Assembly (NCBI RefSeq): GCF_008017755.1
Contig: NZ_VRTS01000007.1
Span: 140,501-204,500, forward strand
DNA from: Alkalisalibacterium limincola
Lineage (GTDB): Bacteria > Pseudomonadota > Gammaproteobacteria > Xanthomonadales > Xanthomonadaceae
DNA: 64,000 nucleotides
Direction: 5' to 3'
The translations under genes and the position numbers were made by a program. The notes under the pieces were generated by a model. It ran no database searches, was not told where the DNA came from, and was given only the letters and a program-made list of their open reading frames with translations. Shown piece by piece: positions 7,951 through 56,619 of this stretch. Position 1 is the stretch's first letter; the number at the start of each line of letters is the position of its first letter.

Positions 7951-8369
7951 ATGTTTGGCAATGACAAGGGGCGCGGATCCAAGCCCAGTGGTTCTTCCAT
8001 GGACACCCTGATCGGACCCCACGTGGTGATCCGGGGTGACGTCCATTTCAGTGGCGGCCTGTACATCGAGGGCAAGGTGCACGGTTCGGTTGTCGCCGAT
8101 GACGACTCCGACGCGGTGCTGACCGTGTCGGAGAACGGTGTCATCGAGGGCGAGGTGCGCGCACCGGTGGTGGTCGTGAGCGGCCAGCTGCTGGGCGACG
8201 TCACGCGCGCGAGCGCATCGAGCTGGCGGCCAAGGCGCGCGTGGAGGGCAACATCTACTACCGCGTGGTGGAAATGGCCGCCGGGGCGATGATCACCGGC
8301 CGCCTGATCCATGGCGAGGCTCCGCCGAAGCAGCTCTCGGGCCCGAAGAAGCTGGCCGAGGCGTCCTGA
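7951..8369 (+). CDS. bactofilin (polymer-forming cytoskeletal protein), with apparent 1-nt deletion frameshift near 8200-8210
   Basis: Bactofilin beta-helix repeats (VIRGDVHFSGGLYIEGKVHGSVVADD...VIEGEVRAPVVVVSGQLLGDV); C-terminus (HARERIELAAKARVEGNIYYRVVEMAAGAMITGRLIHGEAPPKQL...) continues in the +1 frame. Confidence 0.75.
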
Positions 8370-19146: not shown

Positions 19147-19699
19147 TTATTGGGCGGCCTCGGCCCAGCCCTGCAGCTCGCGGCGGGTGAACACGCCGAG
19201 CTTTTCGCGCAGCACCCGGCCCTCGGCGTCGAGCAGCACCGAGTAGGGCAGCACGCCGCGGCTGTTTCCCAGCTGCACCGAGCTGTCGGTGGGGCCGGGC
19301 TGGTCCATCAGGATCGGGTAGGCCACCGGCACCTGGGCCAGGAAGTCCTGCACCGGTTCGAGGTCGTCGAGTGCGATGCCCAGCACTTGCACGCCGTCCG
19401 TTCCCTGTTCGCGGGCGAACTCGTCGAGCAGCGGCATCTCTTCGATGCACGGCCCGCACCACGAGGCCCAGAAGTTCACCAGCACCGGCTGTCCCTGCCA
19501 CTCCGACAGCGCCCGCGGCCGGCCCTCGAGGTCGGGCAGTTCGATGGCGGGTGCGAGGTCGCCCTCGCGGGCCACCTCCAGCCCGCGCGGCGCCGGCTGC
19601 TCGGGGGGGCAGCATCGCGCGCTGCCCGAGCTTCATGCCGGCATAGCCCGCCACCGCGGCCACGGCCAGCAGCCCCAGGATCGGCAGGACCCGGTTCAC
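19147..19699 (-). CDS. TlpA/ResA-like thiol:disulfide oxidoreductase with N-terminal signal anchor (frameshift in G7 run 19606-19612)
   Basis: WASWCGPC thioredoxin motif; signal anchor [20 protein letters not shown] in ORF 19130-19699 joins in frame if the G7 run were G6. Confidence 0.7.
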
Positions 19700-21929: not shown

Positions 21930-21934
21930 TGGAT

Positions 21935-22285
21935 TCAAACCGGTGGATCCTTTGGCGTGGCCGCTGGCGGGGTCGTGGTTTCGCTGGCGACCCATTCGAG
22001 GTAACCGGGCAGGCCGGCGACGATTTCGACAGCGATGATCTCGGGAAGTTCGTACGGGTGCGCCTCGCGCAGCAGCTCGCGCAGTGCCGGCCAGGCCGCC
22101 TGCGTCGTCTTGAGCAGCAGCACGACTTCGTCGGCCGTCTCGATCTCGCCTTCCCAGCGGTAGGTCGACACGGCACCCGGCAGGGCCGTGGCACACGCGG
22201 CCAGGCGGGCCTGGACCGCACTCTTCGCGAGGCGCGTGGCGGTGTCGGAATCGGGGCAGCTGCAGTGGACGAGGTAGGCGGGCAT
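21935..22285 (-). CDS. cutA: divalent-cation tolerance protein CutA
   Basis: 116 aa; MPAYLVHCSCPDSDTATRLAKSAVQARLAAC...; cutA-dsbD operon arrangement. Confidence 0.85.
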   Translation of the reverse strand: MPAYLVHCSCPDSDTATRLAKSAVQARLAACATALPGAVSTYRWEGEIETADEVVLLLKTTQAAWPALRELLREAHPYELPEIIAVEIVAGLPGYLEWVASETTTPPAATPKDPPV

Positions 22286-22371
22286 CGGGCGTGGGGTCCT
22301 GCGCGGTGCGGCTTGTCTGGCGGCGGCGCCGCGCCCAAGATGAAGGCCTGTCCAGCCTGCGAGCGCCACAC

Positions 22372-23754
22372 CGGATGCACACACAGCCACTCTTGGAACA
22401 GGCCCGCCAGGCTCGTCGGGCCGGCGCGCTGTCCGCGGCGGAGGCATGTTACCGCGAATACCTGCGGCACCGCTGCGAGGACGACGAGGTGTTGCAGGAG
22501 CTGGCCGGGGTGCTGTTCGACATGCAGCGCGTGGGCGAGGCGGAGGCGACGATCGAGCAGGCGCTGGCGCTGCGGCCGGATGCACCCGACCTGTTGTTCA
22601 ACCGCGCCATGGTGCGCCGCGCGCTGGATCGGCCCGAGCTGGCCCTGGCCGACCTCGACGCGGTGGTCGCCGCGGTGCCGTGGCAGGGAGCGGCGCGGCT
22701 GCATCGCGGCGTTCTGCGTTCCGACCTCGGGCGCCTGCAGGAGGCGCTGGAGGATTTCGAGCACCTGCAGCGCGAGGAGCCGCAGCGGCTGGAGGGACAT
22801 TTCAATGCGGGCCTGGCGCTCACGCGCCTGGACCGTCACGGCGAGGCGATCGCCAGCCTGCAGCGGGCGCGCGCGATCGCGCCGAGATCGGTGCCGGTGC
22901 TGCGCGGCCTGGGCAATGCACTGCGCGAGGGCGGTCGGGCGGCGGAGGGGCTGGAGGTGCTGCGCGAGTGCGTGGCGCTGGACGCCAACGATGCCGCCAG
23001 CCTCGGCGACCTCGGCATGTGCCAGTTGGCCGCCGGGCAGCCGGGCGAATCCGTGCAAAGCTTCCAGCGCGCGCTGGCGCTGGACCCGCGCGACCAGACC
23101 GCGCTGGCCGGCTGGTACCTGGCCAGCAACGACGCCGGTGCGAGCGAACAGGCGCGGCTGCTGTTCGACCCGGCCCTGATCGGCCACGGCCAGCTGGTCC
23201 CGGAAGATCCGGACGCATTGCGCGCCGCGGTGCTCGACCATCCGCAACTGCGCTGGGAGCCGACCGGCAAGACCACCCGCAAGGGGGAGCAGACCGCTTT
23301 CCTGGACCTGTCGCCGGGCTCGCCGTTCGCCGGCCACGGCGCGCAGGTGGCGAAGGCGGTGGCGCAACGCATCCAGGCCCTGCTCGACGACCCGACCCTG
23401 TCGGCGCATCCGTGGATGAAGGGGCGGCTGTCGCGCTGGCGCCTGCGCATGTGGGCCACCGTGCTGCGCGAGGGCGGGCACCAGGCCCCGCACATCCACC
23501 CCTCGGGCTGGATGAGCGGTGTGTTCTACCTCGACGATGGCGACGCCGACCCGCAGGCGGGGCAGGGCGGCACGATCGTGTTCGGCCGCGGTCCCGACGA
23601 GCTGGCCCTGCAGGCACCGCCGCTGGAGTGGTCGCACCAGCCCGCCACCGGCGAGCTGCTGCTGTTCCCGTCCTACTTCCACCACCACACGCTGCCCTTC
23701 GCCGGTCGCGGCGTGCGCATCAGCCTGGCCTTCGACGTGGTGCCGCGCGGCTGA
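22372..23754 (+). CDS. TPR-repeat protein with C-terminal 2OG-Fe(II) oxygenase-like domain
   Basis: Multiple TPR-like repeats; C-terminal HIHPSGWMSGVFYL...FPSYFHHHTLPF resembling PF13759-type oxygenase fold. Confidence 0.6.
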   Translation, partial: RMHTQPLLEQARQARRAGALSAAEACYREYLRHRCEDDEVLQELAGVLFDMQRVGEAEATIEQALALRPDAPDLLFNRAMVRRALDRPELALADLDAVVAAVPWQGAARLHRGVLRSDLGRLQEALEDFEHLQREEPQRLEGHFNAGLALTRLDRHGEAIASLQRARAIAPRSVPVLRGLGNALREGGRAAEGLEVLRECVALDANDAASLGDLGMCQLAAGQPGESVQSFQRALALDPRDQTALAGWYLASNDAGASEQARLLFDPALIGHGQLVPEDPDALRAAVLDHPQLRWEPTGKTTRKGEQTAFLDLSPGSPFAGHGAQVAKAVAQRIQALLDDPTLSAHPWMKGRLSRWRLRMWATVLREGGHQAPHIHPSGWMSGVFYLDDGDADPQAGQGGTIVFGRGPDELALQAPPLEWSHQPATGELLLFPSYFHHHTLPFAGRGVRISLAFDVVPRG

Positions 23755-33189: not shown

Positions 33190-33233
33190 GGCCCGCATCG
33201 CGCTGCAAAGCCGATGCGGGTCTTTTTTTTGTC
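33190..33233 (+). terminator. rho-independent terminator after the LDDR operon
   Basis: CCCGCATCGcgctgcaaagcCGATGCGGG stem followed by TCTTTTTTTTG. Confidence 0.6.
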
Positions 33234-39850: not shown

Positions 39851-39894
39851 CGCGCGAGTATAGGCTTCGAGCCCTCTGCGACCACTCGTCATGC

Positions 39895-39961
39895 ATCACA
39901 TGTAATTAGTCCAAGAAGTCACATGTGATGTATTGACGCTGTCACATGTGATGTGTATCTT
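39895..39961 (+). promoter_or_regulatory. operator/promoter array: three CACATGTG-type palindromes phased 23 bp apart, overlapping TTGACG-N17-TATCTT
   Basis: CACATGTa at 39897, CACATGTG at 39920 and 39943 (latter two as TCACATGTGATGT); -35 TTGACG 39933-39938, -10 TATCTT 39956-39961, ATG at 39969 (near-leaderless). Confidence 0.4.
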
Positions 39962-39968
39962 GTGTTCC

Positions 39969-41300
39969 ATGGAACGAAAGACCTCCGCCTATTACCAGCG
40001 CCGGCATCGCGAGCGCCTTCGCGAGCAGGGGCTGGTGAAGAAGGAGTTGTGGATCCTGCCGGAGTTCGGGGATGAACTCGCGGCTGTGGAGCGACGGATG
40101 CGCCAGCCGCGAGGCACGGTGCCCATTCAACAGGAGAGTGAGATGAGCGAGCCGAAGGTCTGGACCGCCAAGGCGCTTTACGAAGCGTTGAAGGCGACCG
40201 AACAGTTCCAGGGGGGCACGGCCACGGCCGAGCTGCTGGAGGGCGCCGAGCCCAGCCTGCACCTGGTGATGCACGAGTACGGCGACCTGCCGCTGTTCCT
40301 GGCGGTGGTCGGTGAGCAGATCGTGGTCGAGTCGCTGCTGTGGCCACAGTCTCAGGTGCACGACATCGCCGCGTTCAACGACGAGCTGCTGCGCACCCAC
40401 AAGATGTTCCCGCTGTCGACGGTCGGCATCGAGGACCTCGATGGCGATGCGGTCTACATCATGTTCGGTGCGCTCGATGCGCGCTCGTCGCTGTCCAACG
40501 TCGTGTTCGAGATCGACACGCTGGCCGACAACGTCATCAAGGCCACCGAAGCCTACGAAGCCCACCTGAAGGCGCTGCCTGAGGCAGCCACGAGGAGACA
40601 GAGCATGAACATCTGGAGCAAGTTGATCACGGCGCTGCGCGGCGGGGCCAACGAGGTGGGCGAGGCGGTGGTCGATGGCCAGGCGCTGCGCATCCTCGAC
40701 CAGGAGATCCGCGACGCCGACGCCGAGCTGCGCCGGTCCAAGGAGGCGCTGGCCGAGATCATGGCCAAGCTGAAGCTGGCCGAGGTGCGCCTGGCCGAAT
40801 CCGAGAAGAAGGTCGGCGAGTACGAGGCCTACGCGATGAAGGCGCTGGACTCCGGTGACGAGAACCTGGCCCGCGAAGTGGCGGGCAAGATCGCCACGAT
40901 GGAGCAGTCGCGCGACGGCGAACGCCAGCAGGTCGAGGCGTTTACCGCCAGCGTGGCCGACCTGCGCCGCGCGGTCAGCCAGGCCGAGGGCAACATCCGC
41001 CGGCTCAAGCAGCAGGTGGACACGGTCAAGGCGACCGAGAGCGTGCAGCGCGCGCAGGCGACGGTGGCGCACCGCTACAGCGGTTCGCAGTCGAAGCTGA
41101 CCACGGCGCTGGACTCGCTGGAGCGGGTGAAGAAGAAGCAGGCCGAGCGCGGCGCGCGCATGGAGGCGGCGGCCGAGCTGGCGCGTGACGAGGGCACCGA
41201 CGCGGTCGACACCAAGCTGCGCGATGCCGGCATCCTGGCCGACGCGGCCAGCACCGAGTCGGTCCTGGACCGCCTCAAGAGCAAGCGCGCGACGGGCTGA
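39969..41300 (+). CDS. single stop-free ORF containing three modules: DUF3018-like RHH basic domain, YjfI-like DUF2170 domain, PspA/IM30 (YjfJ-like) coiled-coil domain
   Basis: MERKTSAYYQRRHRERLREQGLVKKELWILPEF (DUF3018-like); MSEPKVW...FLAVVGEQIVVESLLWP...MFGALDARSSL (YjfI-like); MNIWSKLITALRGG...ILDQEIRDADAELRRSKEALAEIMAKLK... (PspA-like); internal AGGAG-ATG signals before the second and third modules but no stop codons. Confidence 0.7.
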   Translation: MERKTSAYYQRRHRERLREQGLVKKELWILPEFGDELAAVERRMRQPRGTVPIQQESEMSEPKVWTAKALYEALKATEQFQGGTATAELLEGAEPSLHLVMHEYGDLPLFLAVVGEQIVVESLLWPQSQVHDIAAFNDELLRTHKMFPLSTVGIEDLDGDAVYIMFGALDARSSLSNVVFEIDTLADNVIKATEAYEAHLKALPEAATRRQSMNIWSKLITALRGGANEVGEAVVDGQALRILDQEIRDADAELRRSKEALAEIMAKLKLAEVRLAESEKKVGEYEAYAMKALDSGDENLAREVAGKIATMEQSRDGERQQVEAFTASVADLRRAVSQAEGNIRRLKQQVDTVKATESVQRAQATVAHRYSGSQSKLTTALDSLERVKKKQAERGARMEAAAELARDEGTDAVDTKLRDAGILADAASTESVLDRLKSKRATG

Positions 41301-42067: not shown

Positions 42068-43996
42068 ATGAATTTCGACCTCGCGCTGCTGCTGCCCTTC
42101 CTGATCGGGTTTGTCGTACTGGTCATCCTGGTCATGGGCCTGTTCGGCCTGTTCAAGGCCTTCTACATCAAGGTGCCCCAGGGCACCGCGCTGATCGTGA
42201 ACGACCTGTCGCCGCAACCCAAGGTGCACTTCACCGGTGCCCTGGTCTACCCGGTGATCTACAAGAAGGAGTTCATGAAGATCTCGCTGATCACCCTCGA
42301 GGTGGACCGGCGGGGCAAGGACGGATTGATCTGCCGCGACAACATGCGCGCCGACATCACCGTCGCCTTCTACCTGCGCGTCAATGAGACCGCGCAGGAC
42401 GTGCTGAAGGTGGCCAAGGCCATCGGCGTGGACCGGGCCTCGGAGAAGGGCGCGGTCAACGAGCTGTTCAACGCCAAGTTCTCCGAGGCGCTCAAGACCG
42501 TCGGCAAGCAGATCGACTTCGTGAAGCTGTTCGAGAACCGCCAGGAGTTCCGCGACTCGATCGTCGAGGTGATCGGCAACGACCTCAACGGCTACGTGCT
42601 CGAGGACGTCGCGATCGACTACATCGAGCAGACCCCGCGCAGCTCGCTGGATCCGTCCAACATCCTCGACGCCGAGGGCATCCGCAAGATCACCGAGCTC
42701 ACCGCGGCGCAGAACGTAATCACCAACGAGCTCGAGCGCAACGAAGAGCTGGCGATCACCAAGAAGAACGTCGAGACGCGAGAGGCGATGCTGGCGCTGG
42801 AGCGGCAGCAGGCCGATGCCGAGGCGCGGCAGAAGCGCGAGATCCAGACGATCAAGGCCCGCGAGGAGGCCGAGACGGAGAAGGTGCGCGAGGAGGAGCG
42901 CCTGAAGGCCGAGAACGCGCGCATCCAGACCCAGGAGCAGATCGACATCCGCGAGGAGAACCGCCAGCGCGAGGTCGAGGTGGCGCAGCAGAACCGCCAG
43001 CGCGCGGTGGTCATCGAGGTCGAGAAGGTGACCCGCGCCCGCGACCTGGAAGTCGTCTCGCGCGAGCGTGAGGTCGAGCTGCAGCGCATCGAGAAGGAAA
43101 AGGCGATCGAGGAGCAGCGCAAGGAGATCGCCAACGTGATCCGCGAGCGCATCGTGGTCGAGAAGTCGGTGGCGCAGGAGGAGGAGCGCATCAAGGAGGT
43201 GCGCGAGGTCTCCGAGGCCGACCGCCTCAAGCAGGTGGCGATCCTCAATGCCGAGGCCCAGGCCGAGGAGGAACTGGTGCGCCAGGTCAAGCAGGCCGAG
43301 GCCGAGGAGACCGCCTCGAAGCACAAGGCGGTCGAGATCACCACGATCGCGCAGGCCGAGCTGGAGGCCGCCGGCAAGAAGGCCGAGTCGCAGAAGAAGC
43401 TGGCCGAGGGCATCGAGGCCGAGCGCGCCGCGCCGGGCCTGGCCGACGCACGGGTGCGCGAGATCACCGCCGCGGCACTGGAGAAGGAAGGCCTGGCCGA
43501 GGCGCGCGTGATCGCCGAGAAGATGGGCGCCGAGGCCAAGGGCGAGTCCTCGCTGGCCGAGGCCCGTGCCAAGGCGACGCGCGACGTCGGCCTGGCCGAG
43601 GCCGAGGTGCTGCGCGAGCGCTTCCGCTCCGAGGCCGAGGGACTCACCGAGAAGTTCGGCGCCCTCGAGCAGCTGGGCGACAGCGCACGCAGCCACGAGG
43701 AGTTCCGCATGCAGCTGGAGAAGAACTTCGAGCAGGCCATGGCGTCGATCGAGGCCGGCAAGGACATCGCCCGCGAGCAGGCCGAGGTGCTGTCGGCGGC
43801 GCTGTCGAAGGCCAAGATCGACATCGTCGGCGGCGAGGGCGAGTTCTTCAATTCCTTCGCCAAGGCGCTGTCGGTCGGCAAGGCCATCGAAGGCGTGGCC
43901 GGCAAGAGCCCGGTCGTGCAGGACATGCTCAAGCGGCTGATGCCGCAGATGGGTTCTTCCGCCGAGGGCGAGGCCAAGCCACCGGCCGACGCCTGA
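42068..43996 (+). CDS. flotillin (SPFH/Band-7 family, YqiK-like)
   Basis: N-terminal TM anchor, SPFH domain, very long Glu/Ala/Arg/Lys-rich coiled-coil; 642 aa. Confidence 0.85.
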   Translation: MNFDLALLLPFLIGFVVLVILVMGLFGLFKAFYIKVPQGTALIVNDLSPQPKVHFTGALVYPVIYKKEFMKISLITLEVDRRGKDGLICRDNMRADITVAFYLRVNETAQDVLKVAKAIGVDRASEKGAVNELFNAKFSEALKTVGKQIDFVKLFENRQEFRDSIVEVIGNDLNGYVLEDVAIDYIEQTPRSSLDPSNILDAEGIRKITELTAAQNVITNELERNEELAITKKNVETREAMLALERQQADAEARQKREIQTIKAREEAETEKVREEERLKAENARIQTQEQIDIREENRQREVEVAQQNRQRAVVIEVEKVTRARDLEVVSREREVELQRIEKEKAIEEQRKEIANVIRERIVVEKSVAQEEERIKEVREVSEADRLKQVAILNAEAQAEEELVRQVKQAEAEETASKHKAVEITTIAQAELEAAGKKAESQKKLAEGIEAERAAPGLADARVREITAAALEKEGLAEARVIAEKMGAEAKGESSLAEARAKATRDVGLAEAEVLRERFRSEAEGLTEKFGALEQLGDSARSHEEFRMQLEKNFEQAMASIEAGKDIAREQAEVLSAALSKAKIDIVGGEGEFFNSFAKALSVGKAIEGVAGKSPVVQDMLKRLMPQMGSSAEGEAKPPADA

Positions 43997-44137
43997 GCCC
44001 GGCCACCCCCCGGCCGAGCCTGGCCGGGGGTGGGACGATACGCCGGGTGAGCCCGGCACACCATGGATGCAGGTCGCGCGGCGGAAGCTTCCGTCGCCGT
44101 GGCCGGATCGGCCCGGCACCGGGCAGGACGGAGAGGC

Positions 44138-47100
44138 ATGGCTGAGAAGACCCCCGACACCGATACCGCCGCCGAGTCCGGCGTGGTCGACCGCGCGGTC
44201 GCCGAGGGCGGCGCCTACGAGGTGCTGCAGCGGCGCTTGCTGGACCAGGGCGCGCGCCTGCGCGGGCTGGCCGAGTCGCTCAATGCCAAGCGCCTGGAGC
44301 AGTTCGGCAGCAGCCGCATGGAGGTGGCCGGCCGGGTTCGGGTGCGCACCGAGCACAACTGCGTGGCCCGCGACATCGTCCAGGTCGGCTCGATGCTGCT
44401 GTTCGGCTACAACGTCTTCATCGGTTTGAAGAAGGAAACCCGGGTCGAGGACGTCTTCTCGCTGTACCGCCTCGACGAGCGCGAGCAGGGTTACGAGGTG
44501 GTGCCGGTCGACCTGGCCGACAGCTTCCTGGCCGATCCGGGCTTCGTGCGCGACTTCAACGAGCTCTACGCCTACTACAAGAGCGCCCGCCTGCTGCAGC
44601 TCTCCAGCCGCGACGACCGGGTGTTCGCGGTGTTCCAGATCGGCGAGCGCATCAGCGACGTGCGCGTGTTCCGCTGGAACACCACGGGTGGCCAGGTGCG
44701 CTATGTCGACAACCGCGGCGAGCGCGATGTCGAACTGCCGGCCGCGTTCGACTTCGAGTGGACGCCGACCACCCGCGAGATGGTGGTCAACGGCCCGCAC
44801 CCGCACGTCAACATCCTCGACACCGTGTTCGTCGAGACGATCGGCGGGCAGCTGACGGTCAAGATCGAGAACAACACCCGCGACGGCCGCGGCATCTTCA
44901 GCGAGCCCGTCGACGACCAGACCCAGTCGCTCGACGACGCGCAGATCCAGTTCGCCCGCATCGGCGACCTGGTGCTGCTGAAGATCCGCCCCTACCGCGA
45001 GGAGCGCTGGCGCTACCTGGTCTACAACACGCTCACCCGCAGCGTGCAGCGCATCGACGCGATCGGTCAGGCCTGCATCCAGCTGCCCGAGGACCACGGC
45101 ATCATCTTCCCGGGCGGCTACTACCTGCCCAACGGCGACACCCGCGCGTTCGAGCAGTCGATGGAAGGCATGCGCTTCAAGCGCATGATCCGCTCGCCCA
45201 ACGGCGAGGACGTGCTCTACATCTTCTACGAGCCCGAGGGCGGGCGCACCGCGCTGTTCACCTACAACATGATCGAGCGCAGGCTGACCACGCCGATCTT
45301 CGGCCACGGCTGTGCGCGCCTGGACGACGGGCGCATGGTGATCTTCTCCAATGCGTCCGACGAGCCGACCCGCATCCACCCGATGCAGGTGTGGATCACG
45401 CCGTTCACCAGCGAGGAGTACGCGGCGGCGCAGCCGGCCGGCGAGGGCTTCATCGCGCGCATCGGCAACGCCGAGCTGGTGCGTGGCGTGTCCGACCTGC
45501 TCAGCCTGGCGCGCGAGATCGACGCCGAGGCGGTGTCGGTGCAGCGCTACGAGCTGCTGGTGCAGAACACGCGCCGGCTGTTCGACCTGCACCACTGGGT
45601 CGAGGACCGCGAGAGCAGCGACGTCGGCAAGCTGCTGCACGAGATCGCCGCGACCGGCGAGTCGGTGCTCGACGAGTTCGAGAAGGTCGAGGGCATTCGC
45701 GCCGAGTCGGCGCAGGCGATGGCGTCGGCCGAGGAACGGCACCGTGACCTGATGGCGCGTGCACAGCCCCGCGACTGGAAGTCGGTGGGCGAATTCGTCG
45801 CGATGCTCGATGAGCTCGCCGCACTGCGCGGCCACCTGCTGACGATCCGCGACTACCGCTATGTCGACGTCGAGCGCATCGACGCGATGGAGGCCGAGCT
45901 GCTCGAGGCGCACGAGCGCGTGGGCGTGGCCACCGGCGACTTCCTCGCCGGGCCCGACGCGCTGGCACCGTTCGGCGAGCGCCTGCAGGCACTCGACGAG
46001 GCCGCTTCCGAAGCCGACACCGCGGCACAGCTGCGCGAGCCGCTGGCCGGCATGGAGGCGATGTCGGGCGAGCTCGACACGCTGTCGGACTCATGGCCTC
46101 GCTGCGGGTGGAGGACGCGACGCAGCGCACCGCCATCGTCGAGGCGATCTCGGCGATCTACGCGCGGCTCAACCAGGCCAAGGCGCGGCTGGAGCAGCGT
46201 CGCCGCGGCATGGGCTCGGCCGAGCGCGTGGCCCAGTTCGGTGCCCAGTTCACGCTGTTCGGGCAAAGCATCACCGGGGCGCTGGCGATGGCCACCGACC
46301 CGGAGCGCTGCGACGAGCAGCTCTCGCGGTTGCTGGTGCAGCTCGAGGAGCTGGAAAGCCAGTTCGGCGAATACGAGCAGTTCCTCGGCGACATCCTGGC
46401 CAAGCGCGAGGAGCTGCTGGAGACCTTCGACGCGCACCGCCAGGCGCTGGTCGACGACCGCCAGCGCCGAGCCCACGCCGTGGGCGACGCGGCGATGCGC
46501 ATCCTGGAAGGCCTGGGCCGGCGTACCGCGCGGCTGCAGGATCCCGACGCGCTCAACGCGTTCTTTGCCGGCGACCCGCTGATCGTCAAGCTGCGCGAGC
46601 TGGCCGGCCGGCTGCGCGAGCTGCACGACAACGTGCGTGCCGACGATGTCGAGGCGCGTCTCAAGGCGGCCCGTGATTCCGCGGTGCGCGGCCAGCGCGA
46701 CCGCAGCGAGCTGTTCGAGGACGGTGGCAACATCATCCGCCTGGGTCCCCGCCACCGCTTCACGGTCAACACCCAGGAACTCGACCTGACCATCCTGCCG
46801 CGTGGCGACGGGCTGAGCGTGCACCTGACCGGCACCGACTACTTCGAACCGATCCGCGACGAGGCACTGGAGTCGCTTCGCCCCTATTGGCAGGTTTCGC
46901 TGGAGTCCGAATCACCGCAGATCTATCGCGCCGAATACCTGGCCGCGCGCATGCTGGAGGCGGCACGCGCGAATCGCGACGAGCTCGACATGGATCGCCT
47001 GCGCGAACTGGTCAAGCAGCCCGAGGCACTGGACCGGGCGATCCGCGACTTCGCCGCGCCGCGCTACCGCGAAGGCTACGAGCGCGGCATCCACGACCAC

Positions 47101-49428
47101 GACGCCGCGCGCATCCTGCAGGCGCTGGTGCCGATGCACGAGAGTGCGGGGACCCTGGCGCATGCGCCACAGGTGCGCGCACTGGCGGTGCTGTTCTGGT
47201 CGGAGCGGGCCGAGCAGGCACCGGCCGCGGGCTGGCCGGGGAGGGCGCGCACCGCCAGCGACATCCAGCGCCTGTTGGGAAGCGGAGCGGGGCTGGAATC
47301 GCTGCGCATCGAGGTGGCCGCGACCCTCGAGGACTTCATCGCGATGCACGCGCTGCCGCTGGAGCCCACGCTGGCGCCGCGGGCGGCGACCTACCTGGTG
47401 GCCGAGCTGGCCGCCGAGCACGCCCGCTTCGCATCGAGCCAGTACGCGCGACGGCTGCTCGATGGCTTGCGCGGGAAGCTGGAGGCGGCACATGCCTGGG
47501 ACGGCTTCATCGCCTCGCTCGATGCCCTTGGCGACCGACTGGCCGCGCGCTGGCAGCTCGCCCACGACTGGCTGGGCGCGCTGGTGGCCGAGCCGGATTT
47601 CCAGGCGCTGGCCGACTACGTGCCCGAAGCCGCGGCACGGCTGGTGGCCCGGGGCGACTTCCCCTGGCGCGACGAGTCCGCCGACCTGCGCGTGCAGGTC
47701 GAAGGATTGCTGGGCGACCACGCGCGCATCGCCGGGGGCGGCCTCGTCATCGGCGTGGACGAGTTCGCCGAGCGCATGGCCGCGCACGAGGTCTTCGTCG
47801 AGGGCGTGCGCGCGTTCCAGGCGCTGCGCCAGCAGGTGGTGGCGCGCGAGCGCGAGGCGATGCGGCTGGAGGAGTTCAAGCCGCGCCCGCTGACCTCGTT
47901 CGTGCGCAACAAGCTGATCAACGACGCCTACCTGCCGGTGATCGGCGACAACCTGGCCAAGCAGATGGGCGCCGCCGGCGACGACCGCCGCAGCGACCTG
48001 TCGGGCCTGCTGATGATGATCTCGCCGCCGGGCTACGGAAAGACCACGTTGATGGAGTACGTGGCGCACCGGCTCGGCCTGATCTTCATGAAGATCAACG
48101 GCCCCTCGCTGGGCCACGAGGTGCGTTCGCTCGACCCGGCCCAGGCGCCGGACGCGACCTCGCGCCAGGAACTGGAGAAGCTCAACCTGGCCCTGGAGAT
48201 GGGCAACAACGTGATGCTGTACGTGGATGACATCCAGCACACGCACCCGGAATTCCTGCAGAAGTTCATTTCCCTGTGCGACGGCACCCGCCGCATCGAG
48301 GGCGTGTGGCGCGGGCGCACCCGCACCTACGACATGCGCGGCAAGAAGTTCTGCGTGGTCATGGCCGGCAACCCGTACACCGAGTCCGGAGAGGTGTTCA
48401 AGATTCCCGACATGCTGGCCAACCGCGCCGATGTCTACAACCTCGGCGACGTGCTCGGCGGCATGGAGGAGGCGTTCACGCTGAGCTACATCGAGAACAG
48501 CCTGACCTCTAACCCGGTGCTGGCGCCGCTGGCCACGCGCGACCTGGGCGACGTCTATCGCTTCGTCGACAAGGCGCGCGGGCGCGAGGTGTCGGCCAAT
48601 GCGTTCAGCCACGCCTACAGCGCGGCGGAGACCGCCGAGATCGTCGGCACGCTCAAGCGCGTGATCCAGCTGCGCGACGTGGTCTACCGGGTCAACCAGC
48701 AGTACATCGCCAGCGCCGCCCAGGCCGAGGCCTACCGCACCGAGCCGCCGTTCCGGCTGCAGGGCAGCTACCGCAACATGAACCGCCTGGCCGAAAAGGC
48801 CTCGCCGGTGATGAACGACCAGGAGATGCAGCAGCTCCTCCACGACCACTACATCGGCGAGGCGCAGATGCTGACCGCCGGCGCCGAGGAGAACCTGTTG
48901 AAGCTGGCCGAGCTGCGCGGCGTCATGACGACCGAGCAGCAGGCTCGATGGGACTCGATCAAGCGCGACTTCATGCGCAACCGGGCCATGGGCGGCGCCG
49001 ACAGCGATGTCGGTGGGCGCGTGGTGGGCCAGTTGAGCGATCTGGTGGAAGGCGTGCGCGCGCTCAAGGAGTTGCGGGGTGGCACGGAGGCGGCCGACCC
49101 CGGGGCGACGGTGGCGCCGCTGGTGGCGGCCCTGGAGGCGATTGCCCAGCGCATGCAGCCGGCCGCGGAAGAGAGCGGGGCGGCGAAGGCGGCCTCGATC
49201 GTCGCGCGCGGCGTGCACTCCGGGATCCGTGAGGCGCTCTCGCCGCTGGCCACCTCGCTCGACGACCGCCTGGAGGTGTACGAGCTGATGACGAAGGTCG
49301 TCGCCAACCTGCGCGAAACCCCTGCGCGCGGCGGTGCCCGCCGGAGCCAGCGGGAAATCGAGCTCGACGAGGCGCTGGAGGCGTTCTCCAAGCGGCTGCG
49401 CGAGCGCTCCGGCCCCGGCGGGTCCTGA
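44138..49428 (+). CDS. very large uncharacterized protein with AAA_5/MoxR-type ATPase domain (two ORFs joined by a probable frameshift near 46085-46095; ~1,760 aa)
   Basis: Walker A (ISPPGYGKTTLMEY), Walker B (VMLYVDDIQH), sensor-1-like (VVMAGNPYT) in second ORF; first ORF (to ~46090) ends in Arg/Ser-rich nonsense while the +1 frame starts MASLRVEDATQRTAIVEAI... 2 nt later. Confidence 0.65.
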
Positions 49429-49571
49429 GGGGCGGATCCTCACGCCGCATTGTTGCGGCAGATGGGACGATCCGTTGTTGTAGGCCCGGATGAATCGAGC
49501 GGTGCAACGACGTAGACTGCCCGCCTCGATGCGCCGTCCGGGCGCCCAATGCACACGAGGGAGTTGCAACG

Positions 49572-50171
49572 ATGTCCAAGTTCGACAAGCCGCTCGATGG
49601 CGCCGCGTTCGACCAGATCTTCCGCCAGGCGCGCACGTACAACCAGTTCGCCGACCGCCCGGTCGAGGATTCCGTGCTGCGCGAGCTCTACGACCTGATG
49701 AAGTGGGGTCCGACCAGCGCCAACATGTCGCCGACACGGCTGGTGTTCGTGAAGTCGGCCGAGGCCAAGAAGAAGCTGGAGCCGGTCCTGGACGAGGGCA
49801 ATCGCGAGAAGACGATGAAGGCCCCGGTGACGGCGATCGTCGGCTACGACATGGAGTTCTACGAGAAGCTGCCGTTCCTGTTCCCGCACACCGACGCGCG
49901 CAGCTGGTTCGCCGGCAAGTCCGACGAGCAGCTCGAGCCCGCGGCGCTGCGCAACAGCTCGCTGCAGGGCGCCTACCTGATCATCGCCGCGCGCGCGCTG
50001 GGCCTGGATTGCGGCCCGATGTCGGGCTTCGACAACGCCAAGCTCGACGAAGCCTTCTTCGCCGGCACCCGCGTGCGTTCGAACTTCATCATCAACCTCG
50101 GCTACGGCCAGGAGGACCTGTTCCCGCGCAGCCCGCGGCTGGCCTTCGACGAAGCCGCCCGCATCGCCTGA
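49572..50171 (+). CDS. nitroreductase-family protein (RutE/YdjA-like putative malonic semialdehyde reductase)
   Basis: 199 aa; ...[21 protein letters not shown]... Confidence 0.75.
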
Positions 50172-50198
50172 CCCACCCCCGCACAAGGAGCCACCCGA

Positions 50199-50779
50199 TG
50201 AAGCACGTTGCCCTCGCCAGCGCACTGGCCCTGGCCGCCTCCGCCCTCGCCCCGGCCCATGCGGCCGAGAAGTGGGAGTTCGACAAGGCCCACACCCAGG
50301 TGCTGTTCGTCGTGAACCACCTCGGCTTCACCGACCTGACCGGCCAGTTCCGCGTGGTCGATGGCGAGCTGATGCTTGATCGCGAGAACCTGGCGAACTC
50401 CTCGGTCACCGCGACGTTGAAGGCCGAAAGCGTCGACATGAACCACGACGGCATCGACCGCCACCTGAAGAACGAGGATTTCTTCTACGTGGAGCAGTAC
50501 CCGGAGCTGACCTTCCGCAGCACCTCGGTGACCGTGGTCGACGAGGGCACGTTGAAGATGGACGGCGAGCTGGAGATGATCGGCCAGACCCTGCCGGTGT
50601 CGCTGGACGTGACCATCAACAACATCGGCGCACATCCGATGAGCGGCAAACCGCATGCGGGCTTCACCGCCACCGGCTCGCTCAAGCGCACCGACTGGGG
50701 CATGGACTACGCCGCCCCGGCCGTGGGCGACGAGGTGTCGATCCGCATCAACCTCGAGGCCCGGCCCGCCTCGGATTAA
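50199..50779 (+). CDS. YceI-family periplasmic protein
   Basis: Signal peptide MKHVALASALALAASALAPAHA; KAHTQVLFVVNHLGFTDLTGQF... YceI signature; AAGGA RBS. Confidence 0.85.
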
Positions 50780-50845
50780 AATGGCGACCAGCGCCGCCGC
50801 CGATCCGGCGGTGCCCGGCCCGCGCCTGCACCGGAAGCTGCAACG

Positions 50846-51550
50846 ATGATCCAGATTCGCCGCTCGAGCGAGCGTGGCCGGGTCCGCCTGGGCTGGCTCG
50901 ACTCGCGCCACACGTTCTCCTTCGGCCACTACTACGACCCGGCCTGGATGGGCTTCGGGCCGCTGCGGGTGATAAACCAGGACCGGGTCGACCCCGGCGC
51001 GGGCTTCCCGACCCACGGCCACGCCAACATGGAGATCCTCTCGATCGTACTGTCCGGCGCGCTGGAGCACCGCGACTCCACCGGCGGTGGTGGGGTGATC
51101 CGGCCCGGCGAGCTGCAGCTGATGTCGGCCGGCCATGGTGTCGAACACAGCGAGTACAACGCCTCGAAGGACGAGCCGGTCGAGTTCCTGCAGGTGTGGA
51201 TCCAGCCCGACCGGGTGAACGCGCCGCCGCGCTATGCCCAGGCCGCCTTCGGTGCCGGGCAACGCGAGGGACGCCTGTGCCTGATCGCTTCGCCCGACGG
51301 CGCGGAGGGTTCGTTGCTGCTGCGGCAGCAGGCGCGGGTGTTGCGTGGCCACCTGCGCCCGGGCGAACCGGTCACCCACGCGCTGGCGGCCGGGCGGCGC
51401 GCCTGGATCCAGCTCATCGGTGGCGAACTGGACCTGGCCGGCGAGCAGCTCGAGGCCGGCGACGGGGCCGGCATCAGTGGCGTGGAATCCTTCGATCTGC
51501 TGGCACGGGGCGACGCCCAGGCCGACGTCCTGGTGTTCGACCTGCCCTGA
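50846..51550 (+). CDS. pirin-family protein
   Basis: GFPTHGHANMEILSIVLSGALEH...SAGHGVEHSEYN cupin motifs. Confidence 0.85.
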   Translation: MIQIRRSSERGRVRLGWLDSRHTFSFGHYYDPAWMGFGPLRVINQDRVDPGAGFPTHGHANMEILSIVLSGALEHRDSTGGGGVIRPGELQLMSAGHGVEHSEYNASKDEPVEFLQVWIQPDRVNAPPRYAQAAFGAGQREGRLCLIASPDGAEGSLLLRQQARVLRGHLRPGEPVTHALAAGRRAWIQLIGGELDLAGEQLEAGDGAGISGVESFDLLARGDAQADVLVFDLP

Positions 51551-51636
51551 TCGTGCCGGTGGCCGCAGCGCGTGAATCGCGCCTGGACTGCGGCCCGGAT
51601 ACACTAGCCACCCCCCTCGACACCGCAGCGCCTGCC

Positions 51637-51850
51637 ATGACCGAGCCCACGCCGCAGACCACCCCCCCCGGCCACGCCGGCCAGCGCCGCGCGTCGCCAC
51701 GAGGTGCGACGGGCCGACCTGCCGCTGAGTTGTCCGCAGCCTTCGATGGCGCTGTGGAACTCGCACCCGCGTGTCTACCTGCCGATCGTGGATGAGGGCG
51801 GCCAGAGCGACTGCCCCTACTGCGGTGCCCAGTACGTGCTGGTCGATTGA
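51637..51850 (+). CDS. small zinc-finger (zf-CHCC-like) protein; frame interrupted in C8 run 51662-51669
   Basis: C-terminal ...DLPLSCPQPSMALWNSHPRVYLPIVDEGGQSDCPYCGAQYVLVD; ATG 51637 (MTEPTPQTTPP) joins this frame if the C8 run is off by one. Confidence 0.55.
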
Positions 51851-51887
51851 ACCGCAGCGGCCCGACGTGAGCCGTCCGGCCAACGCC

Positions 51888-53021
51888 ATGCCCGACGCCG
51901 CGTCGACCGGTCGCCGCCTGTGCGTGGTCCAGCTCCTGCCCGCGCTGGAGTCCGGCGGGGTGGAGCGATCGACGATCGAGATCGCGCAGGCGCTGGTGCA
52001 GGCCGGCCACCGGGCGATCGTGGTGTCGGCGGGTGGCCGGCTGCTGCCGCTGTTGCGCGAGGCCGGGGCCGAGCACGTGGCGCTCGACATCGGCCGCAAG
52101 TCGCTGCTCACCCTTCGCCATGCACTTGCGTTGCGGCGGCTTTTCGAACGCGAGCGACCCGACATCGTCCATGCCCGCTCCCGGCTGCCGGCCTGGCTGG
52201 GCGCCTGGGCCCTGCGGCGCATGCCACCGCCGCGTCCCCGCTGGGTGACCACCGCGCACGGCCTCAACTCGCCCGGGCGCTACAGCCGCATCATGGCCAG
52301 CGGAGAGCGCGTGGTCTGCGTCTCCGGGACGGTGCGGGACTATCTGCTCGCGCACTACCCCGACCTGGATCCGGCGCGGTTGGTGGTGGTGCCCCGCGGC
52401 ATCGATCCGGCCGTTTTCCATCCCGACCCGCGACCTGCCACCGAGGTCCGACAGGCCCTGGCCACGGAGTATCCCGGGCTGGCCGGGGCAGGGCCGCTGC
52501 TGCTGATGCCCGGCCGGGGCACGCGCATCAAGGGGCACGCCGACGGCATCGACCTGTTGGCGAGCCTGCACGCGGCGGGCTGTCCCGCCCGCCTGTGGCT
52601 GCTGGGTGCACAAGCTGCCGGGCGCGAGGCCTACCTGGGCGAACTGCGCCAGCGCGCCGCTGCCGCGGGAGTGGCCGATGCCCTGCTGGTCACGCCACCG
52701 CGCAACGACATCCGCAGCGCCTATGCCGCCGCCGACCTGGTGCTGCAGCTCTCGCGCAAGCCCGAGGCTTTCGGTCGCACGGTGCTCGAGGCACTGGCGA
52801 TGGGGCGTCCGGTGCTGGGCTGGGACCACGGCGGGGTCGGTGAACTCCTGGCCCGCCTGTACCCGGCCGGCCGGGTCGCGCTGGGTGACATGGCTGCGCT
52901 GGCGGGAACCGCCCGGGCCCTGCTCGACGCGCCATCGCCGACACTTCCGGCAATTCCGTTTACCCTGAGGGCCATGCAGGACGCGACGCTTTCACTTTAT
53001 GACCAGCTCATCCACGCCTGA
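51888..53021 (+). CDS. glycosyltransferase family 4 (LPS core biosynthesis candidate)
   Basis: GT-B N-terminal (LESGGVERSTIEIAQAL) and C-terminal (EAFGRTVLEALAMGRPVLGWDHGGVGEL) motifs. Confidence 0.75.
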   Translation: MPDAASTGRRLCVVQLLPALESGGVERSTIEIAQALVQAGHRAIVVSAGGRLLPLLREAGAEHVALDIGRKSLLTLRHALALRRLFERERPDIVHARSRLPAWLGAWALRRMPPPRPRWVTTAHGLNSPGRYSRIMASGERVVCVSGTVRDYLLAHYPDLDPARLVVVPRGIDPAVFHPDPRPATEVRQALATEYPGLAGAGPLLLMPGRGTRIKGHADGIDLLASLHAAGCPARLWLLGAQAAGREAYLGELRQRAAAAGVADALLVTPPRNDIRSAYAAADLVLQLSRKPEAFGRTVLEALAMGRPVLGWDHGGVGELLARLYPAGRVALGDMAALAGTARALLDAPSPTLPAIPFTLRAMQDATLSLYDQLIHA

Positions 53022-54329
53022 GGCCGCGGTGGCGGCACCGACCCTCACGACATTCCGCTGGGCCCCGTGGTGGGTGTTGCTGCAGGTGGCCTTGTGGCCG
53101 GCGCCCGGCATCGCCGAAGGCGTGCTCACGCTGGGCGCGCTGGTGGCGATCTTCATGCTGCTCAAGCAGCGCTTCCGCGGGGGTGGCCGCCTGCTGACCG
53201 CCGAGGCCTGGGCGTTGAGCACGGCGATGTTCCTGGCCTACTGGCTGCCGCAGCTGTTCTCGACCTGGGATGCGGTGAACCTGCCGCGCACGATGCGCGA
53301 AGTGGTCGTCGACCTGCGATACCTGCCGTTCCTGTGGCTGGTGGCAATGGCGGTGGCCGACCCGCGCGGCCGCCGCCTGACCTTCGGCGGCATCGGCGTG
53401 ATCATCCTGCTGTGGCTGGCCGACGGGCTGGTGCAGGCGGCCACCGGCTGGAGCCTCGGCGGGGCCTCCCACGCCGATCGCCTGTCGGGCATCTTCGGGG
53501 ATTCCAACCTCAAGCTCGGACTGGTCATGGCCAGCCTGTCGCCGTTCGCCCTGGTGCTCGCCGCGCGCCGCTTCGGCGTGCTCGGCTGGGCCATGGTGGC
53601 CGCGGGGCTGGTCATCGTCGTACTGCTGGCCGGGGCGCGGGCGTCCTGGCTGACGCTGGCGCTGTCGCTGCTGTTCACCGGGGTCTGGGTGATGGGGGTG
53701 AAGCGGGCGCTGCTGGTGGTGGCCCTGGGCAGCGTCGTGCTGGTGGGTACGGCGACCCTGCTCTCGGACCGGATGGGGCAGCGCGTGGAGCGCACCCAGG
53801 CGGCCTTGTCGGGGGATGCCGAGGGCGTGGATTTCGCCCTGTCCGGGCGCCTGCCGATCTGGCGCACGGCCTGGGCGATGGCGCAGGACAACTGGTTGAC
53901 CGGGGTCGGCTCGCGCGGCTTCCGCGACGCCTATGGCGACTACGCCGAAGCCGACGACCCGTGGATGCAGGGCGAGTGGGAGGGGGCCTTCCATGCGCAC
54001 CAGCTGGTGCTGGAACTGCTCAGTGAAACCGGCGTCATAGGACTGTTGTTGTGGCTGGTCGCTGCGGCGATGGTGCTGCGTGCCTGGCGCTGGGCCGGGC
54101 CCGAGGCGCGCATGGCCAGTCGGTGCCGGCCCTGGCGCTGGCCATCACGCTGTTTCCGATCAACACCCACCTGGCCTTCTATTCGACCTTCTGGGGCGGT
54201 CTGGCCCTGTTGCTGGCCGCGCTGTGCGTGGGCAGCCTGGGGGCGGCCAAGCACGAGCGCAACGAGGAAACGCTGGCGGACCCGGCCGGGGAAGCCGAAG
54301 CGCCCGGCGAGGTCGGGCCGCGTCAGTAG
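52999..54329 (+). CDS. O-antigen ligase (WaaL/Wzy_C) family membrane protein (frameshift near 54100-54120)
   Basis: Polytopic membrane protein with large periplasmic loop (…RLPIWRTAWAMAQDNWLTGVGSRGF…); C-terminal TM segments in ORF 54051-54329. Confidence 0.7.
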
Positions 54330-55253
54330 ATCGGAGGTTCGCCGGGTGGGCGGCGCTTGAAGCGTCGGTGGATCCACAGGTACTGCGACGGGGTCTCGCG
54401 CACCATCGCCTCGATCGCCGCGTTGACCCGGCGGCTGTCCTCGACCGGGTCGGCCGAGGGGAAATCCTCCAGCGGAGCACCCAGCCGCAGCACGTAACGG
54501 CCGCCCTCGCGGCGGTGGAAGAACGGCACGACCGCGCAGCCGGTCATGCGGGCCAGCTGGTGGGTGGCGGTGATGGTCGAGGCGGGGATGCCGAAGAACG
54601 GCGCGAACACCGTGTCCTTGCCGCGCATGTCCTGGTCGGGCGCGTACCACAGCACGCCGCCGGCGCGCAGGTGCTTGACCGTGGCGCGCACCTCCTCCTG
54701 ACGGAACATCGCGTGGGCGTAGCGCAGGCGCCCGGCGCGCACCGCCCATTCCATCACCTCGCCGTCGTGGCGCCGGTACAGGCCGGCCACGGGCAGATGG
54801 CGGCACAGCATGCGGCCGCAGACCTCGAGCGTGGTGAAGTGGCCGGAGACCAGCAGCACGCCGCGGCCGGAGGCGACCAGTTCGCGTATCGCCTCGACGC
54901 CCTCGATGCGCACCCCGCGCTCCAGCGGGGGCGATCGATCCCCACCAGGCGCGCATGAATTCGAATGCGCCGATCCCAAGCGCCTGGAAGTGCTCGAGCA
55001 ACAGCGATTCACGGGCCGCCTCGTCGAGTTCCGGCAGGCACAGGGCGAGGTTGCGACGCGCAGCCCGACGGCGCGACCGCGCGGCCCGGATGAGCACGTG
55101 CCCCAGGCCGCGGCCGATCGCGCGCTGCAGGGGCCAGGGAATGCGGGCCAGCAGCCACAGCAGCCCGACCCCGAGCCAGCCTGGCCAGGTCCTGGGGTGG
55201 GTCGGTGCGCGAAGCGGGGCGCCCTGGGGTATCGAGGTGTCTGCCATCGCCAC
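54323..55253 (-). CDS. lpxL: lipid A biosynthesis lauroyl/myristoyl acyltransferase (frameshift near 54935-54955)
   Basis: N-terminal TM and LpxL motifs in ORF 53940-55253 (…LEHFQALGIGAFEFMRAWWGS), remainder (GVLLVSGHFTTLE...) in ORF 54323-55012. Confidence 0.8.
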
Positions 55254-55281
55254 GATTCTAGCGGGCGGTTATGCTTTGGAC

Positions 55282-56619
55282 ATGCCTGCCTTCTCCGCGG
55301 CGCGCGTCCAGCGTGGCCTCTATTCCCTCGCGATGCGCCTCGGATTGCCGTTGCTGCTCTACCACATGGTGTGGCGCGGGCTGCGCTATCCGGAATACTT
55401 CCGGCGCTGGGACGAGCGACTGGGCGTGTTCACGCCCTTGCCGGTCAAGCCGCGCATCTGGCTGCATGCGGTCTCGGTGGGCGAGGTGAATGCGGCCGCG
55501 CCGCTGGTCGAGGCCCTGCAGCGGCGCTACCCCGACCATGCACTGCTGGTCACCACGATCACCCCGACCGGTTCGGAGCGCGCCCGGACCCTGTGGGGTG
55601 GGGACATCGAGCACGTCTACCTGCCCTGGGACCTGCCCGGCGCGGTGGACCGCTTCTTCGACGCCTCGCGGCCGGACGTCGGCCTGATCATGGAAACCGA
55701 GATCTGGCCGAACCTCTACTTCGGCGCGCGCGCGCGCGGCATTCCGATGCTGATCGCGAACGCGCGGCTGTCGGCGCGTTCGCTGCGTGGCTACGCGCCG
55801 CTGCGCGCGCTGATCGCGCGGGCGGTGTCGGGCGTGTCCGTGGCGGCGCAGTCGAAACTCGACGCCGACCGGCTGATCGAACTGGGCGCCGACCCGGCCC
55901 GCGTGCAGGTGGCGGGCAACCTCAAGTACCACCTGCGCATCGCCGAGGGCCTGCCCGAGGCGGCGGCCGCCTGGCGCGCCACGTGGGGCACGCAGCGTCC
56001 GGTCTGGCTGGCCGCCAGCACGCATCCCGACGAGGAGCCGCAGGTGCTGTCGGTGCACCAGGCGCTGCTGCGCCACCGCCCCGACGCGCTCCTGCTGTGG
56101 GCCCCGCGCCATCCCGAGCGCTTCGAGGCGGTCATCGACGCGTCGCGCGACGCCGGCCTGCGCACCGCCACCCGCCGTGTCGAGGCGCTGCCCTCGCCGG
56201 GAACGCAATGTTTCGTCATCGACACGCTTGGCGAGCTGCTGCAGTTCCTGCCGGCGGTCGACGCCTGCTTCGTCGGCGGCAGCCTGCAGGCGATCGGCGG
56301 GCACAACGTGCTCGAGCCCGCGGCGCTCGGCGTGCCGGTCCTGGTGGGACCACACACCTTCAACTTCGTCGAGGCGACGCGGATCCTGGACGAGGCCGGT
56401 GCGCTGGTGCGCGTGCGCGATGCCCAGGCGCTGGGCCGGGAACTGCTGTCCTTGCTGGCCGACCCGGATCGTCGCGATGCGATGGGGCAGGCCGGTCGCG
56501 AACTGGTGGAGCGCCAGCGAGGCGCACTCGAACGCGTGATGGCCGCGATTGAACAGGTCTACCGACCCGACCGGCGCCACGACGCCGACGCGATCCTGCA
56601 AAGGAAACGGGGGCACTGA
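55282..56619 (+). CDS. waaA: 3-deoxy-D-manno-octulosonic acid transferase
   Basis: WLHAVSVGEVNAAAPLVEAL...; GT-B C-terminal domain. Confidence 0.9.
   Translation: MPAFSAARVQRGLYSLAMRLGLPLLLYHMVWRGLRYPEYFRRWDERLGVFTPLPVKPRIWLHAVSVGEVNAAAPLVEALQRRYPDHALLVTTITPTGSERARTLWGGDIEHVYLPWDLPGAVDRFFDASRPDVGLIMETEIWPNLYFGARARGIPMLIANARLSARSLRGYAPLRALIARAVSGVSVAAQSKLDADRLIELGADPARVQVAGNLKYHLRIAEGLPEAAAAWRATWGTQRPVWLAASTHPDEEPQVLSVHQALLRHRPDALLLWAPRHPERFEAVIDASRDAGLRTATRRVEALPSPGTQCFVIDTLGELLQFLPAVDACFVGGSLQAIGGHNVLEPAALGVPVLVGPHTFNFVEATRILDEAGALVRVRDAQALGRELLSLLADPDRRDAMGQAGRELVERQRGALERVMAAIEQVYRPDRRHDADAILQRKRGH

Follow-up and report, generated by a model that had tools for sequence, protein, structure and literature searches.

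We analyzed a stretch of 64,000 nucleotides (nt) of Alkalisalibacterium limincola (contig NZ_VRTS01000007.1, positions 140,501 to 204,500), hereafter referred to as the window, which has a G+C content of ~70%. Positions 44138-49428 of its forward strand hold a bacE-like gene encoding a very large AAA+ ATPase, the homologue of Pseudomonas aeruginosa PA3728/PA14_16190 (BacE), which is the last member of a bacA-pspA-bacC-bacD-bacE cluster. In the assembly, this gene is written as two open reading frames (ORFs). We found that 44138-49428 is one gene from which exactly one base is missing, and both the position and the identity of that base are established: codon 651 (GAG, Glu) is short of one G, and the resulting shift from frame 2 to frame 1 makes gene finders report two ORFs. 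The G missing at 46089 is very probably a consensus error of indel-prone sequencing, located in the bacE-like gene of a bac cluster.

The mechanical ORF in frame 2 (ORF 1) spans 44063-46582 on the forward strand, with ATG 44138 as its likely start, and the ORF in frame 1 (ORF 2) spans 46093-49428 on the same strand. Translated from ATG 44138, frame 2 gives a plausible protein as far as ...GELDTLS (...MEAMSGELDTLS) and is rich in Arg, Ser, and Pro beyond this point; frame 1 reads as Arg-rich nonsense and turns plausible at L-MASLRVEDATQRT (L-MASLRVEDATQRTAIVEAISAIY), with its ATG at 46093. These translations bear out the original prediction, made from the letters and a list of ORFs alone, that ORF 1 decays into Arg/Ser-rich, off-frame text where the other frame starts. 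The G+C content at third codon positions (GC3) swaps frames between 46000 and 46150, from ~0.9 in frame 2 before the switch to ~0.96 in frame 1 after it, and a seven-state hidden Markov model (HMM) of GC codon periodicity sets the switch point at 46090/46091. Thus, translation, GC3, and the HMM all locate a frame switch at the place claimed. The two ORFs had also been described as lying 2 nt apart, with a stop at 46090, and here the sequence reads differently: the frame-2 codons at the junction are GAC TCA TGG, without a stop at 46090, and ORF 1 goes on to TGA 46580-46582, overlapping ORF 2 by 490 nt. The fused product of both frames is 1,763 aa long.

The domain content of the two ORFs ties them together. 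The N-terminal half, said to contain no recognisable domain, matches the Pfam family DUF3686 (PF12458) end to end (aa 41-486, window 44258-45595, model positions 2-448 of 448, E 4.8e-205). The C-terminal half matches AAA_5, AAA, and AAA_22 at its residues 638-767, with an AAA_5 score of 26.1 bits versus a gathering score of 22 and about equal scores for AAA and AAA_22. A third domain, DUF7902, is shared between the halves: model positions 1-45 correspond to the last 45 residues of ORF 1 (aa 607-651) and positions 47-84 to residues 1-38 of ORF 2, the two parts abutting with one model position absent. On the uninterrupted 1,763-aa product of a conspecific contig, L088 (described below), the same domain is scored as an unmarked full domain. 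Because the break in DUF7902 coincides exactly with the junction, which is flanked by DUF3686 and the AAA matches, the two ORFs are parts of one gene. Profile searches with the two halves thus recovered DUF3686, DUF7902, and AAA_5; the N-terminal half without a domain that the original prediction had pictured was not upheld.

Comparison with relatives points to the same place. A scan of related loci, taking one genome per species, yielded 80 loci from Lysobacteraceae, Pseudomonas, Thauera, Xenorhabdus, and others. In all 80, both halves lie in the same frame within one uninterrupted ORF, and the junction follows the pattern (D/E/N)LD(M/T)LS-x-L-MA(S/T)L, in which the Leu codon before Met is invariant; every one of these loci has exactly one codon where the window holds two bases. 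Conspecific DNA from other sequencing runs was found via exact-protein look-ups. Contig L088 (run SRR32387813), which shares 98.56% nucleotide identity with window positions 43555-55365, carries the bacE-like gene as a single 1,763-aa ORF, and its junction reads CTGTCGGAGCTCATGGCC versus CTGTCGGA-CTCATGGCC in the window, i.e., TCG GAG CTC ATG versus TCG GA- CTC ATG. Since the two bases of the window correspond to a full codon in 80 of 80 loci, and since L088 has GAG there, a single base is missing from the window, namely one G of the GAG codon at 46089/46090, in agreement with the earlier proposal that one gene for a protein of ~1,760 aa is broken by a single-base indel near 46085-46095. The two junction alleles can be told apart at 46089 as TCGGAGCTC versus TCGGACTC; a scan of metagenome contigs for either form of the junction, with the extra base or lacking it, returned no match.

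With the G restored, the window gene and the L088 gene are both 5,292 nt long and align codon for codon with no further indel. The repaired protein is 98.9% identical to that of L088. Of the codons that differ, 75 are synonymous and 20 nonsynonymous, and the ratio of nonsynonymous to synonymous change per site (pN/pS) is ~0.09, reflecting a constraint that is similar in both halves. A single polypeptide of ~1,740-1,830 residues, which the two ORFs of the window as written do not give, is reached after this one-base repair.

The same observations bear on two other explanations of the split. Two separate genes, arising from a natural division of the family with DUF3686 in one product and the AAA+ module in the other, would fit the ATG at 46093 and the output of gene callers, which give products of 814 aa and 931 aa. 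However, there is no stop at the junction, the 490-nt overlap consists of non-coding-like text, ATG 46093 encodes a Met that is internal and conserved throughout the family, GGA being its sole possible Shine-Dalgarno sequence, DUF7902 spans the junction, and no split version occurs among the 80 loci or the 120 top protein matches; we assign this explanation a negligible probability. Programmed -1 ribosomal frameshifting or transcriptional slippage could instead join both ORFs in vivo, given that the change is -1 and that a -1 slip near 46089 would restore full length. Yet the junction CTG TCG GAC TCA TGG contains neither a slippery heptamer of the form X XXY YYZ nor a homopolymer, the gene is in frame in all 80 relatives and in L088 with nothing conserved that would suggest recoding, and ten further genes in the window would need equal rescue. 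The conspecific allele effectively refutes this mechanism, which has next to no chance of being correct. We exclude both a programmed recoding event and a natural pair of genes.

The split in the bacE-like gene has many counterparts in the window (Table 1). These sister lesions were flagged using the seven-state periodicity HMM combined with a filter for missing stop codons and confirmed by reading the three frames; this procedure replaced a heuristic based on GC3 tails, which was noisy owing to antisense frames. In total, ~11 gene-breaking single-base indels were found in 64 kb, affecting about one in five of the window genes. Ten are deletions that fall in short G/C runs, the majority being GG-to-G or CC-to-C, and the window genes show no premature stop codons or larger deletions. 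The indel sites share little beyond this pattern: most are GG-to-G or CC-to-C changes beside C or G, and several precede GAC, which is too unspecific for an error model or a methylation motif. For three of the broken genes, purH, dsbD, and a ligase-associated DEXH-box helicase gene, a single added base gives an end-to-end equivalog match: once repaired, purH aligns without interruption with positions 3-510 of 510 of its NCBIfam equivalog, dsbD with positions 31-550 of 574 across the junction, and the helicase with positions 2-803 of 804 of TIGR04121.

Other sequences carry several of these genes intact. Contigs L085 and L086, which come from other runs, have an intact 139-aa bactofilin, an intact 293-aa ampE-like gene, and an extra G at 6892; L088 has an intact 433-aa Wzy_C protein and an intact 307-aa acyltransferase; and L090, reading AAGGCGGCTGCCTGA, has a separate 204-aa bacA and 231-aa pspA. 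Because the window contains ~11 indels of the same kind that are absent from conspecific contigs, we read the split at 46089 as an artefact, and its cause is most probably a sequencing error rather than a mutation.

The assembly was also compared, over ~53.5 kb, with Logan contigs L081-L084, which were assembled from its own sample, SRR10038466. The two assemblies differ by no substitution and by seven single-base indels, at six of which the base is absent from the window, and the Logan assembly reads intact at 8201 and at 9609/9610. Two accurate-read assemblies do not differ only by indels, and therefore the underlying data are indel-prone. Other aspects of the same comparison weigh against a sequencing error. 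The Logan contigs share the deletions at 46089, in purH, in dsbD, in the DEXH helicase gene, and at the bacA stop codon, with L082 holding both the purH and dsbD splits; the k-mers of the SRR10038466 read set therefore support the deletion at 46089, at least in their majority. The missing base lies outside any long homopolymer (GGAG to GGA), an unusual setting under some error models, and the deletions would be real if SRR10038466 were accurate short-read data.

Because the Logan contigs share these five deletions, we keep a small share of probability for a real, strain-specific mutation, which we consider unlikely. Such a 1-nt deletion would be very recent and would make bacE a fresh pseudogene in this isolate, leaving a DUF3686 fragment of 650 residues that ends in 164 further residues of nonsense and an ATPase half that is untranslated or made by weak internal initiation. 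This would accord with the agreement of two assemblies of SRR10038466 on the deletion, with the position of bacE at the end of its cluster and its non-essential character in P. aeruginosa studies, and with the intact state of the rest of the gene, as expected of a very recent event. On the other hand, it would be one of ~11 simultaneous recent frameshifts in 64 kb, purH and the lipid-A acyltransferase gene included, with no nonsense mutation or larger deletion alongside; the same-sample assemblies disagree by single-base indels only, as befits indel-prone data; and the pN/pS ratio gives no sign of relaxation. The identical junction in the Logan assembly was considered as independent proof of a real mutation and rejected, given that the two assemblies differ only by single-base indels and that contigs from other runs are intact. 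If the deletions as a group were real, the isolate of SRR10038466 would represent a lineage with ~1 frameshift per 6 kb, hitting purH, dsbD, the lipid-A acyltransferase gene, and bacE among others, which we regard as very improbable. To survive, it would have to be a strain in advanced decay or one that was mutagenised, or else suppress frameshifts with unusual efficiency, and its BacE would exist as separate beta-rich and ATPase fragments or be absent.

With sequencing error as the preferred cause, the consequence for users of the assembly is practical: no search for pseudogenes, gene fusions, or 'split' genes should rely on it. An apparent bacA-pspA fusion (see below) and the breaks in purH, dsbD, and the lpxL-like gene belong to the same artefact.

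Table 1. Features of the bacE-like locus, the upstream bac genes, and the other single-base indels of the window. Positions are those of the window; slashes within sequences mark the break.
Feature	Position	Strand	Evidence and remarks
bacE-like gene, 5' part: codons 1-650 and GA of codon 651, frame 2	44138-46089	+	Translation; DUF3686; GC3 ~0.9; HMM segment 44144-46090
Missing-base site	46089-46090	+	Window TCGGA/CTCATG versus L088 TCGGAGCTCATG (Ser-Glu-Leu-Met); 80/80 loci; extra G in L088
bacE-like gene, 3' part, frame 1: Leu652 (CTC 46090-46092), Met653 (ATG 46093) to TGA 49426-49428	46090-49428	+	Translation; HMM segment 46091-49405; continuous in L088
Out-of-frame, non-coding tail of ORF 1, 164 codons, Arg/Ser/Pro-rich, ending at TGA 46580-46582	46091-46582	+	GC3 there ~0.7-0.8 versus 0.96 in frame 1
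DUF7902 helical domain (PF25472, 85 positions), cut by the frame switch	45956-46206	+	Pfam
AAA+ ATPase module	47998-48582	+	Walker A GYGKTT 48031-48048; Walker B LYVDD 48217-48231; sensor-1 MAGNPY 48361-48378; ANRAD 48418-48432
bacA-like gene (DUF2170/CesT-Tir-like)	39969-40582	+	NF050185 BacA, 343 bits; PF09938; TGA 40580-40582 out of frame by the G missing at 40573
pspA/IM30-family gene (bacB-like)	40605-41300	+	PF04012, E 3e-51; own ribosome-binding site AGGAGA
bacC-like gene, 212 aa	41387-42025	+	No Pfam match; kept at this place in 75/80 loci
bacD-like gene, 642 aa	42068-43996	+	Positional equivalent of PaFlo3 (PA14_16180); adjoins the ATPase gene upstream in 77/80 loci
bacA stop codon	40573		1-nt deletion; fuses bacA to pspA
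GGDEF/EAL response-regulator gene	6892		1-nt deletion; part of gene shifted
Bactofilin	8201		1-nt deletion
ampE-like gene	9609		1-nt deletion, truncating
purH	~14109 (gene 12981-14551)	-	Missing G, GCG ACG/GAC (GCGACG/GACCCG); one G shared by two codons
dsbD	~20239 (gene 19696-22382)	-	1-nt deletion, missing G, GCGCG/GACGCG
Ligase-associated DEXH-box helicase	~32366 (gene end ~32437)	+	1-nt deletion, CGC/GC/AGC; -1 switch; last 23 residues lost
Wzy_C O-antigen ligase	54121		1-nt deletion, missing G
Lipid-A acyltransferase (lpxL-like)	54927		+1 in a G run
RND/HlyD adaptor	~60180		1-nt deletion; called as 224 aa + 165 aa in L083

There is nothing unusual about the bacE-like gene, whose family is known, very large, and widespread, and the split, being no real feature of the gene, carries little biological weight. 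More than 5,000 homologues were retrieved with the fused conceptual protein as query, and each of the 120 best is a single protein of 1,733-1,859 residues with 93-100% query coverage. The architecture, implied to be unusual when the gene was first described, is thus that of a very large and well-conserved family. To our knowledge, this BacE/PA3728 family, with its more than 5,000 members, is biochemically uncharacterised in any organism.

AlphaFold2 models of the two halves have the layout that had been anticipated, with a beta-rich N-terminus, an AAA+ module, and a helical C-terminus. The N-terminal half (mean predicted local distance difference test score, pLDDT, of 82) comprises a helix at residues 10-56, ~25 strands between 62 and 420, and helical bundles from 426 to 651. 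The C-terminal half (mean pLDDT 75.5) begins with a long helical region (9-205), followed by a confident helical domain (279-590), the AAA+ core (~636-830), and a helical tail. A Foldseek structure search returned weak AAA+ matches, NorQ (9qh4), RuvB, Cdc48, and CbbQ, and otherwise generic helical bundles; a sequence search of the PDB gave no match for the N-terminal half and P-loop-level matches only for the C-terminal half, with no solved structure for either.

The ATPase core can be placed in general terms. Its Walker A (GYGKTT), Walker B (LYVDD), and sensor-1 (MAGNPY) motifs are invariant in 51 homologues, and the Walker A (GYGKT), Walker B (YVDD), and sensor-1 Asn of the family invite comparison with MoxR-type AAA+ proteins (AAA_5; NorQ, CbbQ) and with RuvB/Cdc48. 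The structural matches to these proteins are weak, with Foldseek E-values of at least 0.012 (0.012-0.4 for NorQ and CbbQ) and a template modelling score of ~0.3 on the target. Unlike in MoxR-type proteins, the ATPase module makes up less than 15% of the 1,763 residues of the bacE-like protein. No VWA partner, a MoxR trait, occurs among the Pfam matches of the listed neighbours, although no search aimed at VWA was made.

Four genes precede the ATPase gene on the same strand, encoding a DUF2170 protein, PspA, a 212-aa protein, and a 642-aa protein (Table 1), and all four are found before the ATPase gene in 67 of the 80 loci. The first two appear fused in the window as one ORF of 443-455 aa (39969-41300), and they are separate in 67 of 67 related loci and in L090. 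At the 3' end of bacA, the window reads AAGGC-GCTGCCTGA, one G short of the L090 sequence. The bacA-pspA fusion is an artefact of the same class as the bacE split and no natural fusion. At a Pfam cut-off of E <= 1, no family was found for the 642-aa protein (Band_7 and Flotillin included), the 212-aa protein, or the ampE-like protein.

Upstream of bacA, at 39890-39968, lie two copies of TCACATGTGATGT with the palindromic core CACATGTG, overlapping a sigma-70-like TTGACG-N17-TATCTT; the pair may represent a candidate operator for autoregulation. Matches to a sigma-54 -24/-12 element upstream of bacA were no commoner than in shuffled sequence, and none was rightly placed. In this respect the locus differs from P. 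aeruginosa bacA, for which a sigma-54 site has been proposed; none is seen upstream of bacA here.

The correspondence with P. aeruginosa extends over the whole cluster. A P. aeruginosa protein of 1,746 aa (P0042) shares ~66% identity with the bacE-like protein over 97% of its length, and its equation with PA3728 follows from synteny and from the description in the papers. Pseudomonas loci have the same gene order, DUF2170-PspA-small protein-642-aa protein-giant ATPase. In P. aeruginosa, bacABCDEF forms the 'biofilm-associated cluster' operon, with BacE encoded by its fifth gene (Wallart et al. 2024, PMC10948618; Mace et al. 2008, PMC2587700), and bacA-bacD together with PA14_16190 (bacE) and PA14_16200 (bacF) constitute one operon (Wallart et al. 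2024, PMC10948618). Whereas the P. aeruginosa operon includes bacF, here a nitroreductase gene and YceI come after bacE, and there is no bacF equivalent. In a bacA mutant of P. aeruginosa, BacB-F accumulate (Wallart et al. 2024, PMC10948618). Within the P. aeruginosa cluster, PaFlo3 (PA14_16180) is the flotillin-like protein, and PA3728-PA3732 are co-induced by phage infection, as well as in another proteomic study and under other stresses. The system described in a 2024 mSystems paper (PMC11237479) has the same operon composition as the locus studied here and the same domain order in its ATPase: an N-terminal helix, a beta-rich region (aa 62-420 in the protein studied here), long helical bundles, and then the AAA+ module.

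Most of the 120 best homologues, which include a cluster of 3,222 P. aeruginosa members, are labelled 'DNA repair ATPase'. We found no support for a role in DNA repair, either in this analysis or in the papers on the cluster; the label is inherited from the Pfam description, and the context points to envelope stress instead. Judging by gene linkage and co-regulation, the intact protein is probably an ATP-driven remodeller or chaperone at the inner membrane, which would act together with the ESCRT-III-like PspA and a flotillin-like scaffold during envelope stress. Associations between PspA and AAA+ proteins have been discussed by Ravi et al. A functional analogy, and only that, can be drawn with Vps4 and ESCRT-III, where an AAA+ ATPase is genetically coupled to a protein of the ESCRT-III superfamily, as the bacE-like gene is to PspA/IM30 here; unlike Vps4, the bacE-like protein has no MIT domain, and the two are not related in sequence. 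Disassembly of PspA by BacE would be in keeping with this analogy, with no claim of membership in the Vps4 family. The question of wider interest is set at the level of the family: what function is served by an AAA+ protein of ~1,750 residues with tight linkage to PspA and to a flotillin-like protein and with co-induction by envelope stress and phage infection.

Further small differences between the assemblies were noted along the window. Bases are also missing from the window at 6671, 4273, and 756 relative to Logan contigs of the same and/or other samples (L084-L086). Intergenic homopolymers differ between the window and the same-sample Logan assembly at 33222 (T8 versus T9) and at 44006 (C6 versus C5), and L088 sides with Logan at the latter (C5). 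The lengths of C runs differ at 51610 and 51662, where a zf-CHCC gene is called as 34 aa in the window versus 70 aa in L088. After the DEXH helicase gene, pdeM begins at ~32433.

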